Shown: positions 42,243 through 63,110, counted from the stretch's first letter. The stretch: 64,000 bases of DNA from Amphiscolops sp. MND2022 (GCA_964187785.1 OZ076409.1:1612001-1676000); one strand, 5' to 3'. The notes: generated from the sequence alone by a model not told the origin. Made by a program: numbers and translations.

Positions 42243-44350
42243 GTTACTACCTACTTGCCTATTTCCCTTTTGTTTGCCCATAAAAAAGCATGTATTCATT
42301 TTTAAAAACAAAAATACGGAATTATTCATATCAATAAAAAATTGTCATTTACTTTATTAAAGTGACAATTTTGAAAAGGATTGCGTATACCGAAACTGGG
42401 ATTTGGTGTAGAGATTTTGTGCCCTTAGTACAAGAAACGCGTGTCAGTTGAAAGAGTTTGGAAAATGGTAATTTACTTGTTTCGAAATTTGTGACCGACC
42501 TATCAACTGAAATGTTTTAGGTGTGGGAAAATTTCGATTACTTATGCACTCGTACCTTTTTTCTTCTCCCAACCTTTCCAAGAAAATTTCACATTTCTCA
42601 GAACTGTCCGTACAATTCTTATATATTATTTTGCACAGTCATTCAACACCCAAAGGTGCTCCTGCGTGCGCAATGAAATCAAAATCGTATGACTGGGTTC
42701 TGAGAACGTTGCGATAGATTTGAATTTTTCAACAGAGGGTTTGACAATTTTGTGTGTCAAAGCTCCCTTCCTTTGAAACTACGTCTAAATTATTTTCGAG
42801 ATCAGTTTTTTTTAGAAAAAGATATTTTTCTACTCAATTCTGCAATCATAAAAATGAGTAACTGTTTTTTCTGAAATGCAGTTGTTAATTCTAGAGGTTT
42901 CTTTTGGTTTTGTAAAAGGAAAAGTGATTTTTTTAAATCTTATGAGTTGAATGATTTCAGGTTTTAACGCTTCTGGTCAACACCTCATCTCATGGCGACG
43001 GATTTGGAAATAACAGAATAATGGAAGAATTCGTTCAGCATGTTAGTTGCATGGAAGTAGTTTGATTTTATAGGGGGTCGTGCCAAACACGGGGGGGGGT
43101 TGTTAAATTTTACGAAAAGTAAAAAATATGAAAATAGCTGCTTCATATTTGGGGTTACCGAAAGTTAAACTCGTTTTTTCCAAATTTTTTATTAGTTTCA
43201 CTTCGAATGTATACTCAGAAAATTTGTACTCAAGAGCTACCAACATAAAATTATTCAATGATAAAAATTACCTTGGAAGCAAATATACATCATGGAGCTG
43301 TCTGAATTGACGAAATATAGTTATTAAAATATTTGATTAATTTTTAAAAACTTTTTGTGTGTTTTGAATGACTTTTCGATTGTATGTTTGTTTCCAAAAA
43401 AAAGTTCCGGGTTAGATATACGAGCAGCAACTTTTTAACCAAAAAGCCCGATTCGTTTGTAATTTTGATTTTTTACAGGGTGTTTCTGTGGACCACTGGT
43501 GCAAAGATGCATTCAAAGGCGAAAGAAGTGAAACGGAGACTGAGAAAATTAGTTATCTGTTGAGAAATCTCGACATTTTAAACACATTTTAGTCTGTTGT
43601 GTATTTTATACCTCCTTTTATTCATTTTTTCTTTTATCTGAATGACAAAAAATAACGCATTTGGCGGAGAAAAGCAAAACAAAAAGAACAACAGTGAGCA
43701 GTCAGACCTTTGTGACCTCGAGCAAGTCACTTTGAAACCACAGCTTCAAGTCCACCATTACTTGACCACTTGGCTGCAAATATGGTACCATAGTTTGCTA
43801 TGGGGAGATACTATCCGAAAGGGCGCCGACAGAGAAGAGCAGAACTGCTTATTCGGCGTCCATCCCCATGGAATTGGGGAAATTAACTTTCTTTCTTTAT
43901 TTCATCTGAATTAGCACCGAGAATGTGCCGTAATTGCTGTGAACATTGTAATCAACGGCCCCTTATTTTGCAGATTTAAAACTGCCTTTTCTCTACTAAC
44001 AAACCAATTCCACGTCTCAATTTTCACCTTGACACGTAATTTGTGAAAGTCTTGTCGTGTTCGACTTATGGCAAACAAAAAGAAAGAAACTTACCGTGAA
44101 AACTCAAAAAGAAATAAACTCAAAACTCGTAATATGTAATTTTATCTTTTGTAACTTGCGCAGTTTTATCTTTATCATTTTCTCGCTCAGCTCTGAATTT
44201 TGAACACGCTCGAACGTGTACACTCCCTTGTTCAGCGACGCTGCACACATTCCTTATTTGGTCATGGCGTCAAATGACATCATTTTGTCGTGGACGCTAC
44301 GCCTGCGAATAACACATACGAAACACTTTCGTTTCTATAGTCATTTGACT

Positions 44351-44437
44351 TGACGTCATATGACGTCATGCTCGTCAGCCAATCACGATAGTGATTCGAT
44401 TTTATTGGCTGACGAAGCGGTCAAATTTAGTATAAAA
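44351..44437 (+). promoter_or_regulatory. LTR promoter: two TGACGTCA (CRE) sites, inverted CCAAT pair, TATA box
   Basis: TGACGTCA at 44351 and 44361; TCGTCAGCCAAT (44372-83) / ATTGGCTGACGA (44404-15); TATAAAA at 44431. Confidence 0.7.
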
Positions 44438-44658
44438 GCAGACCAAATTTTCAACTCTGAGCTCTTCTTTTGGAATAATACTAAATCCACAAACCCGACC
44501 ACTCCAACCTCTCCATCTCCTTGCACGAGTTCAACTGCCATCATCAGCGCGGCGCAGTATTTGTTGGTTAAAATCTTTTCAATTTTCTTTTCGGAGCTTT
44601 CACTTTCAATTTTTGTAAGTCTCTTCTCTTAACTTAAACTTAAATCAGTAGCACTTAA

Positions 44659-60806: not shown

Positions 60807-60864
60807 ACAGCAACAACCTGCGAACCCCCGTTACATTTTCTTCAATCTTGAAACCCGGGTGAGA

Positions 60865-63110
60865 TGTCGTGTGCGACTTATGGCAAACAAAAACAAAGAA
60901 ACTTACCATGAAAACTCAAAAAGAAATAAACTCAAAACTCGTAATATGTAATTTTATCTTTCGTAACTTGCGCAGTTTTATCTTTATCATTTTCTCGCTC
61001 AGCTCTGAATTTTGAAAACGCTCGAACGTGTTCACTCCCTTGTTCAGCGACGCTGCACACATTCCTTATTTGGTCATGGCGTCAAATGACATCATTTTGT
61101 CGTGGACGCTACGCCTGCGAATAACACATACAAAACACTTTCGTTTCTATAGTCATTTGACTTGACGTCATGCTCGTCAGCCAATCACGATAGTGATTCG
61201 ATTTTATTGGCTGACGAAGCGGTCAAATTTAGTATAAAAGCAGACCAAATTTTCAACTCTCAGAGCTCTTCTTTTGGAATACTACTAAATCCACAAACCC
61301 GACCACTCCAACCTCTCCATCTCCTTGCACGAGTTCAACTGCCATCATCAGCGCGGCGCAGTATTTGTTAGTTAAAATCTTTTCAATTTTCTTTTCGGAG
61401 CTTTCACTTCAAATTTTTCTAAGTCTTTTTTCTTTAACTTAAATCATTAGCACTTAAAATTTTATAAGTCTTGGCTCAATTTTATCTTTGACAATTCTCA
61501 ACGCTGCTTCAAGTAAAGCAATTTTATCTTAAGCTTTTGTCAAGCCTGCTTCCTAGCTGAAGCAGCTTTATCTTTGACAATTCTCAACGCTGCTTCAAGT
61601 AAAGCAATTTTATCTTAAGCTTTTGTCAATCCTGCTTCCTAGCTGAAGCAATTTTATCTTTGACAATTCTCAACGCTGCTTCAAGTAAAGCAATTCTATC
61701 TTAAGTTTTTGTCAAGCCTGCTTCCTAGCTGAAGCAATTTTATCTTTGACAATTCTCAACGCTGCTTCAAGTAAAGCAATTCTATCTTAAGCTTTTGTCA
61801 AACCTGCTTCCTAGCTGAAGCAATTTTATCTTTGACAATTCTCAACGCTGCTTCAAGTAAAGCAATTCTATCTTAAGCTTTTGTCAAGCCTGCTTCCTAG
61901 CTGAAGCAATTTTATCTTTGACAATTCTCAACGCTGCTTCAAGTAAAGCAATTCTATCTTAAGCTTTTGTCAAACCAGCTTCCTAGCTGAAGCAGTTTTA
62001 CCTTTGACAATTCTCAACGCTGCTTCAAGTTAAGCAATTCTATCTTAAACTTTTGTCAAGCCTGCTTCCTAGCTGAAGCAATCTTATCCTAAGCAATTTT
62101 CAACACTATTCTCGAGCCAAAGACAATTTCAAGTCTGCTCTCAAGCTAGAGCAATCATTCTCTTACGTTGGAGTTTCAGTTGACTTTTGACTTCGAACAG
62201 AAGCTATTATACCGTCTTTGTTCAACAAAGATTGAATACTCCCTGCTTTATAGTGGACTCTAAACCAAAATCTGGTGGTATTCACTGACTCTAAACTAAA
62301 AACCACAGCTTCAGCTGGGTTATAAGAGACTTAAATAACTTAGCCATTGTCTGACTCTTCAAGTCGGACCGTTCTCAACTTGAGACAAAGAGTAGCCGTG
62401 TAGCGCTCTATAAAAATAGTACAACGAAGCGTTGTTCTAAACCCAAAGAATAGCAATTCGCTATCTTTCCCAGTCCGTGACAATCGGTGGACTATAAACG
62501 CCGTGCAAGCTTTTAGCTGCACTTTAGAAAAGAGGCCTAACCTCTGACTTGATAAAACAAAACATAATAAAAACTTTACGGTTTATTTCCTAGTAACTTA
62601 ATCTAATAACCCTTTCCTAGTAACCTAACTTATATTATTTAAAGATTGATATTAAACCAGCATTAGTTGTATTTTGTTTATTTAGCCTAATTTGTTTGTT
62701 TTGCTTTTGTATAACTGATATCTATTACAATTTTAGTATAAATAAAGGAAGGTTCAATTCACCTATTTTTGAACCCAAACACTCTTTTCTCCCGGGTCAT
62801 AAAAATAAAGTCCTTCCGTTCGAACTCAAACCTGAGATTTCCTTTGTGTAAGTGCTGGAAGGCAATATAGCGAAAATTTTAAGTACGAGAATATTTTCTT
62901 TTTTCAGTCAGGAAAATAGAAGAGAAGCGAACTAAGAGTTTATAAAATTGACAATAATTGAGACTTATAATTAGCACCATTCAAGAATTCAAAGAGAAAA
63001 ACTGAAGGAAGAAAAATCACTAATTTTGAACATTCTTAAAAGAGCTTTCGCTAATTGAAAGAAGGATATAGATTCATCAATTTTCCTACCAACTCAACAA
63101 GCACTTCACA
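60865..63110 (+). mobile_element. 3' LTR of element A (2246 bp; 7 units of the 86-bp array at ~61480-62090)
   Basis: Preceded by GGGTGAGA; TGTCGTG...TTCACA followed by the GTCT TSD. Confidence 0.95.

Follow-up and report, generated by a model that had tools for sequence, protein, structure and literature searches.

Evidence for a complex gene set in a degraded, probably Ty3/Gypsy-type endogenous retrovirus of Amphiscolops sp. MND2022

INTRODUCTION

Does a 19-kb repeat-bounded stretch of the Amphiscolops sp. MND2022 genome represent one retroelement with a complex, virus-like gene set, or an ordinary Gypsy element into which unrelated pieces have been inserted? The question is raised by a 64,000-nucleotide segment (GCA_964187785.1, OZ076409.1:1612001-1676000), referred to here as the window, whose positions are counted from its first letter and concern the plus strand unless stated otherwise. 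An earlier note on this DNA had read one part of it as a single unit, bounded by long terminal repeats (LTRs) and a target-site duplication (TSD), that holds gag, a pol with an embedded macrodomain, about 3.7 kb of open reading frame (ORF) remnants and hairpins, a class III-type env and a TRAF gene; it took the unit for an infectious retrovirus-like lineage with spliced mRNAs and host-defence antagonists, in a gene combination that it did not recognise. Our analysis indicates, with a probability of roughly 80%, that the 19-kb region preserves, in degraded form, one copy of an endogenous retrovirus (ERV) of Ty3/Gypsy type (Metaviridae-like) that has many copies, was recently active and carries a complex gene set. 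The element appears to be the invertebrate equivalent of a complex retrovirus.

RESULTS

A single LTR-bounded element

A direct-repeat search delimits one LTR element at 44053-63110, with a 5' LTR of 2364 bp (44053-46416, TG...CA ends) and a 3' LTR of 2246 bp (60865-63110); the TSD GTCT stands at 44049-44052 and again at 63111-63114. Three nucleotides past the 5' LTR lies a primer-binding-site (PBS)-like TGGTGCGACCAGTGAGGC (46420-46437), identical in a second copy, called C8, and all these hallmarks (TG..CA termini, 4-bp TSD, PBS beside the 5' LTR) are present in both copies. The LTR pair of the window copy is 97.0% identical (44 mismatches in 1634 aligned columns). Each LTR contains a tandem array with an 86-bp period (about 44573-45388 and 61348-62163), probably a U3 enhancer repeat, whose unit number differs between the two LTRs of the window copy and C8. 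The LTR pair, the GTCT duplication and the Pfam and TARG1 matches described below bear out the single unit of the earlier note.

The window copy is heavily damaged, with gag, pol and env spread over many frames and an in-frame stop in TRAF. The genes were read mainly from the better C8 copy. Its open frames are 436 codons for gag, 1425 for pol as far as a frameshift that interrupts the integrase core, and 401 for the C-terminal part of the integrase; several small ORFs follow, then env in pieces of 215 and 559 codons, a 155-codon frame and a TRAF frame of 349 codons. On the window's own frames, Pfam recovers Retrotrans_gag, RVT_1, RT_RNaseH/_2, Integrase_H2C2, rve and Integrase_p58_C, together with TRAF-mep_MATH (E 3.2e-13) and a weak Monjiviricetes_fusion match (E 1.3e-3).

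The gag gene (46774-48038), frameshifted in the window copy, encodes Retrotrans_gag and a CCHC knuckle at 47556. The heptamer T_TTA_AAC (48026-48032), 3 nt before the gag stop codon at 48036-48038, falls in the gag frame as X_XXY_YYZ, pol being open across it in the -1 frame in both lineages, and it reads as a canonical -1 slippery site joining gag and pol. A GC-rich downstream stem, 6 nt past the heptamer, is not supported as a frameshift stimulator (z -1.36; 19 of 200 shuffles fold equally well). In pol (47984-53524), interrupted here by several frameshifts, we located the protease (PR) motif at 48152, reverse transcriptase (RT) at 49994-50371, RNase H at 50558-50951 and integrase (IN) at 51850-52990. 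The C8 pol frame (1425 aa) matches Asp_protease (residues 4-91), RVT_1 (627-751), RT_RNaseH (814-945), Integrase_H2C2 (1247-1305) and rve (1325-1420), and the domain order PR-RT-RNase H-IN, the same in the window frames, is that of Ty3/Gypsy. The integrase ends in a GPY/F-type module (Integrase_p58_C, E 6.5e-8, 33.0 bits against a cut-off of 27); SH3_Tf2-1 stays below its cut-off, and Pfam finds no chromodomain. By structure-database ranking, which is not a phylogeny, the solved structure closest to the RT/RNase H is that of Ty3 (4ol8, E 1.9e-33), followed by foamy virus (2.4e-21), caulimovirus (9.8e-20), MLV-type (7e-12) and HIV (4e-7) enzymes. A programmed integrase frameshift common to both copies was considered and rejected, because the breaks sit at different places.

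Genome-wide copies and purifying selection

DNA searches of the 1.07-Gb assembly, in each of which 40 candidates were scored, returned 202 candidate loci for the TRAF segment (all 40 scored matching at 83-100%), 204 for the macro segment (40 of 40, at 92-100%), 299 for the middle region and 351 for env (all 40 scored being full-length, at 88-100%). Pairs of segments that share contig and strand and stand in the expected order and spacing number at least seven for macro-to-TRAF, at least 16 for macro-to-middle and at least six for middle-to-TRAF. C8 and the window copy are colinear for 19.0 kb, with about 91% identity; C8 is flanked by a TSD of its own (GTTC), shares the PBS and has LTRs that are 99.8% alike (2 mismatches in 2024 columns). 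The window copy is thus old relative to C8, their LTR divergences being 3% and 0.1%, respectively. Thirty loci around TRAF fall into three groups: a young subfamily whose members are 97-100% alike, a second one (95-99%), and the lineage of the window copy and its local duplicate. At these 30 3'-end loci, the frame is open in 16 for the env part, in 19 for ORF153 (the 153-codon ORF ahead of TRAF) and in 15 for TRAF. The earlier note had allowed that its modules might be one-off insertions; the macro, middle, env and TRAF segments each recur genome-wide, and C8 has them colinear.

Ratios of non-synonymous to synonymous substitution (dN/dS) were obtained by the Nei-Gojobori method on natural copies of different subfamilies. 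Between subfamilies they are 0.04-0.07 for the C-terminal part of env (12 of 16 pairs computable, four having been dropped for a stop), 0.01-0.08 for ORF153 (8 of 16 pairs), the most constrained gene measured, and 0.09-0.12 for TRAF (all 16 pairs). Between the window copy and C8 they are 0.12 for the macro core, 0.05 for RT/RNase H, 0.13-0.15 for gag and 0.13 for the integrase C-terminal part. For the small ORFs between pol and env, C8 (subfamily A) was compared with a copy of subfamily B, C2, with values of 0.14 for ORF72, 0.38 for sORF-a, 0.08 for sORF-b and 0.19 for sORF-c; out-of-frame controls gave 1.05 and 1.27. Ratios of 0.04-0.19 across env, macro, TRAF, ORF153 and two sORFs (0.38 for the third) therefore point to working genes of the element and not to debris.

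A TARG1-type macrodomain within pol

A macrodomain resembling TARG1/OARD1 lies between PR and RT (48912-49307). Residues about 265-405 of the C8 pol match five human TARG1/C6orf130 chains (E 2.9e-25 to 6.1e-25) with about 40% identity (about 56 of 141 columns, by hand count of the alignment). The catalytic dyad of TARG1 consists of Lys84 and residue 125, according to the available part of a published account (PMC7050489); both columns, Lys84 (T-K) and the acidic 125 (GCGLD), are identical in the C8 alignment and in the window copy, which thus keeps the catalytic lysine and acidic residue. The Pfam Macro profile has no passing match in the window copy's frames. In an Atlas search with the macro region, 29 of 30 feature matches were macro-domain clusters. 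The region also occurs, at 40-91% identity, in 13 unnamed RT-bearing database proteins, so that pols of the PR-macro-RT type form a wider group. Among long proteins, its sole match outside retroelements is P0038, a virga-like RNA virus replicase (30% identity over 60% of the macro region, E 2.2e-12). Viral macrodomains counteract antiviral poly(ADP-ribose) polymerases (PARPs). On the basis of these similarities, the element macrodomain is predicted to remove ADP-ribose; TARG1 itself acts on ADP-ribosylated nucleic-acid ends as well as on proteins, as stated in the same available text (PMC7050489).

A class III-type env

The env gene (57212-59334), split over several frames in the window, encodes a Monjiviricetes-type (chuvirus/rhabdovirus-like) glycoprotein, probably of class III. 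The two C8 pieces score 84.3 bits (profile positions 315-609 of 653) and 50.0 bits (positions 19-131) against PF24664, for which the cut-off is 27. There are 370 database relatives; PF24664 is found in 120 of 120 among the matches listed, and the intact proteins measure about 700 aa. Read by eye, the sequence has the layout of a type I membrane protein: the N-terminus that follows the start codon at 57212 is hydrophobic, as in a signal peptide, and a second hydrophobic stretch, the putative C-terminal membrane anchor, lies about 85-100 residues short of the end of the protein. Foldseek, run with an AlphaFold2 (AF2) model of env, returned 124 BFVD and 96 PDB matches at E<=1e-3, with TM-scores of only 0.10-0.35. 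The BFVD list is headed by glycoproteins of chuviruses, xinmoviruses and rhabdoviruses, with E values down to 4.6e-17 from what is a poor model; thogoto/quaranja-type proteins and herpes gB follow, and the matches listed also include a few entomopoxvirus proteins and unnamed entries. The top 50 PDB matches, likewise of low TM-score, are all class III fusogens (gB, thogoto-type Gp, GP64). The env is therefore not F-type, since it belongs to the PF24664 family and its fold matches are of class III only. The premise of the earlier note that errantivirus env is F-type is itself outdated: Gypsy elements with gB-type and with chuvirus-type class III env have been published (PMC13524379, in the portion available).

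ORF153 and a RING-less TRAF gene

Behind env, ORF153 (59360-59806) comprises 148 codons and a stop in the window copy, and 153 codons from the ATG in most copies. It belongs to no known family, the best Pfam match (E 0.0047) falling below the cut-off and an Atlas search yielding no usable match. Its product is rich in leucine over an N-terminal stretch and bears a patch rich in lysine, and a Rev-like role in RNA export might be guessed at. For the LTR retrotransposon Cer1, a protein is reportedly necessary for the export of genomic RNA.

The last gene (59814-60806, with an in-frame stop at 60501-60503) encodes a RING-less TRAF protein made of a coiled coil and a TRAF-C/MATH domain. The C8 frame counts 349 codons, of which the protein uses all but about the first 20 (330 aa from the ATG, window 59814). 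It matches TRAF-mep_MATH (E 8.4e-23, residues 219-341) and MATH_2 (E 1.3e-19), with a weak coiled-coil-type match at 31-131, and among solved structures the TRAF-C domains of TRAF5, 4, 1, 2, 3 and 6 (E 1.6e-14 to 2.5e-8). Neither the TRAF frame nor ORF153, upstream of it, yields a RING or zf-TRAF match in Pfam. As many as 22 of the 24 database matches are unnamed close relatives (71-99% identity), and the other two, the closest matches from outside such elements, are only 23-25% identical. Signalling by TRAF proteins requires the RING and the zinc fingers, and RING-less TRAFs behave as dominant negatives.

Small genes, repeats and splice-like motifs between pol and env

Pol is followed by a variable spacer (53525-55190) that is 71-86% identical between copies or unalignable. 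Next come the remnants of a conserved ORF of 71-72 codons, ORF72 (55242-55436), of sORF-b (55405-55740, 89% identical to its C8 counterpart) and of a paralogue, sORF-c (55830-56259), and then four repeats (56363-56877), each made of a palindrome (ACACGG..CCGTGT) and TATAAATAACTCC, which are a candidate internal promoter or enhancer. The 3.7 kb of ORF remnants and hairpins mentioned in the earlier note is thus real, and consists of remnants of conserved small genes plus four palindrome/TATA-like repeats. The repeats, located between sORF-c and env and 360-820 nt upstream of the env ATG, number four in the window copy, five in C8 and three to four in C2, and the rest of the window lacks them.

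C8 and C2 have identical sets of small open frames, namely the 72-codon ORF and three others of 106/117, 112 and 148 codons. The latter three, sORF-a, -b and -c, are paralogous, a and b being duplicates with 54-60% identity, and c only 17-21% identical yet colinear. Subfamilies A and B have three of them, and the lineage of the window two (b and c only; window 55273-55379 was compared). A profile built from six sORF sequences retrieved 47 clusters among 1.84 billion representatives, 17 of them at E<=1e-10; nearly all of these clusters (50% identity) consist of proteins of 46-196 aa, and the family has no Pfam entry. Among ten relative clusters looked up, only P0203, the weakest sORF match, carries a name. 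In P0171 a single frame encodes first a sORF domain (38% identical to sORF-b) and then a gag N-terminus (51% identical to the gag of the element), an arrangement seen also in P0174, P0182 and P0197. The sORF gene therefore stands at the head of gag in sister elements, and between pol and env here. The AF2 model of sORF-b is confident (predicted local distance difference test, pLDDT, 87.5) and has four strands and two helices; its best matches (Foldseek against PDB, E 0.16; VIA-align wide, Z 4.5) are both within noise, and the structural rows include several PH-like and Tudor-like proteins, also at noise level.

The earlier note had pointed to acceptor-like AGs at 55196 and 59353, and these are indeed found behind pyrimidine tracts, at 55195-55196 (in the TTTTAG at 55191-55196, ahead of ORF72) and 59352-59353. 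The acceptor-like TTTTAGCA, a pyrimidine tract with AG, is conserved ahead of ORF72, env and ORF153. Just upstream of ORF72, two lineages keep a GTAAGT followed, 30 nt on, by a pyrimidine tract and TTTTAG (window 55162-55196). This unit looks like a mini-intron of 35-36 nt or a donor for the downstream acceptors.

Local duplication and surroundings

The window copy is 98% identical to an inverted copy just upstream (C1:1596978-1613183), whose 5' end (gag start, and 5' LTR at 1184-3462) reaches into the window at 1-3462 on the minus strand. The upstream flank of this duplicate (3463-6136, minus strand) matches 41388-44052 at 96.6%. As the flanks of both copies match, they must stem from an inverted segmental duplication after integration, and not from two integrations; it is about 40 kb across and takes in the whole element plus at least 2.7 kb of upstream flank. 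An insertion of 1,708 bp later entered the middle region of the duplicate (C1:1603586-1605293, outside the window); it reads as one uninterrupted frame of about 579 codons, antisense to the duplicate. This ORF has no Pfam, PDB or IMG/VR relative and its sequence is single-copy in the genome; it may be a fragment of an unfamiliar virus or gene.

The rest of the window is dense in transposable elements (TEs). It holds an element at 15149-18752 (minus strand) with a Gypsy-type integrase at 16871-17533, a BEL/Pao element (Peptidase_A17, DUF1759) at 30247-34240 (minus strand) that coincides with a GC-rich patch at 30-34 kb, and a further RT at 35913-37007 (plus strand). A 790-codon open frame at 9569-11941 (minus strand), in TE-dense surroundings, has no Pfam match at E<=0.1. 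No host gene was recognised in the 64-kb window, which also yielded no Rfam match and, by ARAGORN, no tRNA.

DISCUSSION

The gene set described here fits a replicating lineage that is probably transmissible from cell to cell. An element that never left its cell would give little reason for env to be under purifying selection, and the env product would give rise to enveloped particles able to enter neighbouring or germline cells. The macrodomain, delivered within Gag-Pol, may strip mono-ADP-ribose placed by antiviral PARPs on element proteins or nucleic-acid ends, and trimers of the RING-less TRAF may fill TRAF-binding sites without signalling, thereby damping NF-kB-type or apoptotic responses. 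It is the identity of their domains that suggests such immune-antagonist roles for the two proteins. The genes of the 3' part would be made from spliced RNAs and/or from an internal promoter. The window copy itself is dead, and an inverted segmental duplication later copied it together with its upstream flank. Of the infectious retrovirus-like lineage proposed in the earlier note, a gene set under purifying selection thus fits the lineage itself, while its spliced mRNAs and its antagonism of host defences are putative, so that the proposal is supported in part.

One could suppose instead that nested insertion or capture, on a single occasion and at this locus, brought the macrodomain, a glycoprotein of endogenous viral element (EVE) type and a piece of a host TRAF into an ordinary Gypsy element. 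The TE density of the window (Gypsy integrase at 16871-17533, BEL/Pao at 30-34 kb, RT at 35913-37007) would suit such a mosaic, and the unique 1.7-kb insertion in the duplicate shows that foreign DNA can enter the middle region. This history is nevertheless highly improbable, since each of the modules is found again at 202-351 candidate loci, with order and spacing kept, the C8 copy with its different TSD is colinear over the full 19 kb, and the modules are under purifying selection between subfamilies. A less radical alternative accepts the element as a unit and holds that its accessory genes aid its own replication and do not block host defences: TRAF would turn on NF-kB/JNK-type signalling for transcription from the repeat-rich LTR, the macrodomain would have Gag or the nucleic-acid ends of the element itself as substrates, and the sORFs would be structural accessories of Gag. 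The 86-bp array of the LTR is typical of an enhancer, the sORF domain shares one frame with the gag N-terminus in a related element, which suggests a role in the virion or in assembly, and TARG1 also acts on ADP-ribosylated nucleic-acid ends (PMC7050489, available part). Yet the RING and the zinc fingers needed for TRAF signalling are absent from the TRAF of the element. RING-less TRAFs, moreover, are known as dominant negatives. We consider this alternative unlikely on the whole; for the macrodomain and the sORFs, the present data do not separate an antagonist role from one in self-replication.

The expression of the genes past pol can also be viewed in two ways. An internal promoter, in the manner of foamy viruses, might be used in place of, or besides, spliced LTR-driven RNAs, and the palindrome and TATAAATAACTCC (TATA-like) repeats before env, conserved in three lineages and absent from the rest of the window, are candidates for it. 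However, the acceptor-like TTTTAGCA motifs ahead of ORF72, env and ORF153 are conserved too, and ORF153 and TRAF trail env by only about 22 and 7 nt, so that a transcript starting at env would alone translate them poorly. We rate the internal promoter at somewhat short of an even chance.

Several observations weigh against this overall reading of the region as a complex, recently active endogenous retrovirus. Of the three copies followed from end to end (the window copy, its duplicate and C8), not one is intact, C8 being frameshifted in the N-terminal part of the protease, in the core of the integrase and in env, and the duplicate of the window copy carrying the extra insertion. The dN/dS ratios are pairwise values on few copies and not tree-based, and the protein-database relatives are all unnamed records. 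In an intact relative, the macrodomain reaches only 18.8 bits (E 1.6e-3) with Pfam Macro, below the cut-off of 22. The AF2 model of env, built with 22 relatives, is poor (mean pLDDT 49, with residues 50-297 at 70-90), and the fold matches consequently rest on local similarity, as their TM-scores of 0.10-0.35 indicate; by sequence, env has no PDB match at E<=1. Finally, ORF153 (Pfam, Atlas) and the sORFs (Foldseek and VIA-align, with sORF-b) have no assignable family or fold.

Taken together, these data allow a wider proposal, possible if doubtful, that 'complex metaviruses' are still circulating: enveloped invertebrate retroviruses of the Gypsy type that assembled five or six accessory genes independently of the complex retroviruses of vertebrates, among them a TARG1-type ADP-ribosylhydrolase carried on Gag-Pol, a TRAF decoy, small proteins of a duplicating family whose members are fused to Gag in sister elements, and a 153-aa protein that may be an RNA-export factor. 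Env-carrying Gypsy elements, by now recognised as widespread, are usually described as gag-pol-env, and the present family keeps a selected set of accessory genes as well, among them a macrodomain of the kind with which RNA viruses counter antiviral PARPs and a TRAF pared down to the half that binds. Should the roles suggested above hold, retroelements and RNA viruses would share host targets by convergence; as an eraser of ADP-ribosylation, the macrodomain would be the first known to be encoded by a retroelement, implying that PARP-type ADP-ribosylation restricts the retroelements of invertebrates. As the gene set is abundant, young and selected, the conflict between PARPs and retroelements becomes testable in invertebrates, where hundreds of copies offer built-in comparative data and tractable natural examples. 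The sORF family, located before gag or between pol and env, represents a new family of retroelement genes. A caution for annotation also follows, as matches to TRAF, macro or viral glycoprotein domains in such genomes may be transposon genes, and not host genes or simple EVEs.

Comparison with known systems

There is precedent for each of three components, namely a class III env on Gypsy, TRAF-C on Gypsy and a macrodomain on a retrovirus. In the open-access literature we found no TARG1-type macrodomain in a Gypsy pol, no sORF family, no ORF153 and no instance of this gene order. The gene combination that the earlier note did not recognise is hence only partly new: planarian Burro, as described in the available text, has TRAF-C and a mononegavirus-like env (PMC6431247), and it is for the pol macrodomain and the small-ORF set that nothing was found in print within the open-access literature.

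Burro/GYPSM1 is a giant Gypsy element of more than 30 kb with MATH_TRAF_C, BIR, BCL2-like, ankyrin and SUMO-like motifs (PMC6431247; Arkhipova & Yushenova 2019). In the accessible part of that article, it encodes a polyprotein of 4,873-5,140 aa with env in frame between gag and pol and a dUTPase between PR and RT; TRAF-C is a separate accessory ORF in Dugesia tigrina, the env region matches fusion glycoproteins of mononegaviruses, and the element is proposed to meddle with the host apoptosis and ubiquitin systems (PMC6431247). The word 'macro' is absent from the paper (PMC6431247). The Amphiscolops element and Burro share the Gypsy PR-RT-RH-IN backbone, copy numbers in the hundreds or thousands, MATH_TRAF_C, an extra enzymatic domain between PR and RT, and a mononegavirus-like env. 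By its description, Burro is set apart from the present element, whose gag and pol are separate and linked by a -1 slippery site, whose env forms an ORF of its own downstream of pol, whose final gene is TRAF and whose macrodomain takes the place of the dUTPase. Unlike Burro, the frames of the element contain no BIR, BCL2, ankyrin or dUTPase domain by Pfam.

As to env, the element resembles the Gypsy and BEL/Pao elements with chuvirus-like envelopes in using a class III-type glycoprotein of the Jingchuvirales/Monjiviricetes kind, but those are arthropod elements described as gag-pol-env only. Work by Dezordi in 2020 is said to have documented such chuvirus-like glycoproteins on LTR retroelements (Gypsy/BEL-Pao) of arthropods. 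A later survey, in its available part, lists 114 arthropod gypsy elements with a chuvirus-like glycoprotein and env-carrying Ty3/gypsy elements, F-type and gB-type, across Metazoa (PMC13524379; Chary & Hayashi 2026); the words 'macro' and 'TRAF' are absent from its text (PMC13524379). With the 'ancient errantiviruses' of that partial text (PMC13524379), the present family has in common an env-carrying Ty3/gypsy organisation, multiple near-identical copies and, on their side, an env that co-diverges with pol. It is unlike them in that its env belongs to PF24664, with chuvirus, xinmovirus and rhabdovirus G nearest and herpes gB, the type of their env, lower, and in that it has extra accessory genes. 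From the insect gypsy-type genus Errantivirus it differs by lacking an F-type (baculovirus F/paramyxovirus F-like) env.

Epsilon-like ERVs of fish bear macro-domain ORFs (Basta 2009, cited in the available part of PMC4977317) and are thus likewise reverse-transcribing elements with an acquired macrodomain. These are vertebrate Retroviridae in which macro is an extra ORF, whereas the macrodomain studied here is of the TARG1 (ALC1-like) type and is read in frame with a Gypsy pol, where it stands between PR and RT. Human TARG1/OARD1 (2lgr, 4j5q) shares with it about 40% identity over about 140 residues as well as the dyad, but is a cellular stand-alone enzyme of 152 aa and not, as here, a domain of a retroelement polyprotein known from its sequence. 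Similarly, the TRAF of the element has the coiled coil and TRAF-C/MATH domain of cellular TRAF1-6; unlike these it is without RING or zinc fingers, and it is encoded by a TE at no fewer than 200 loci.

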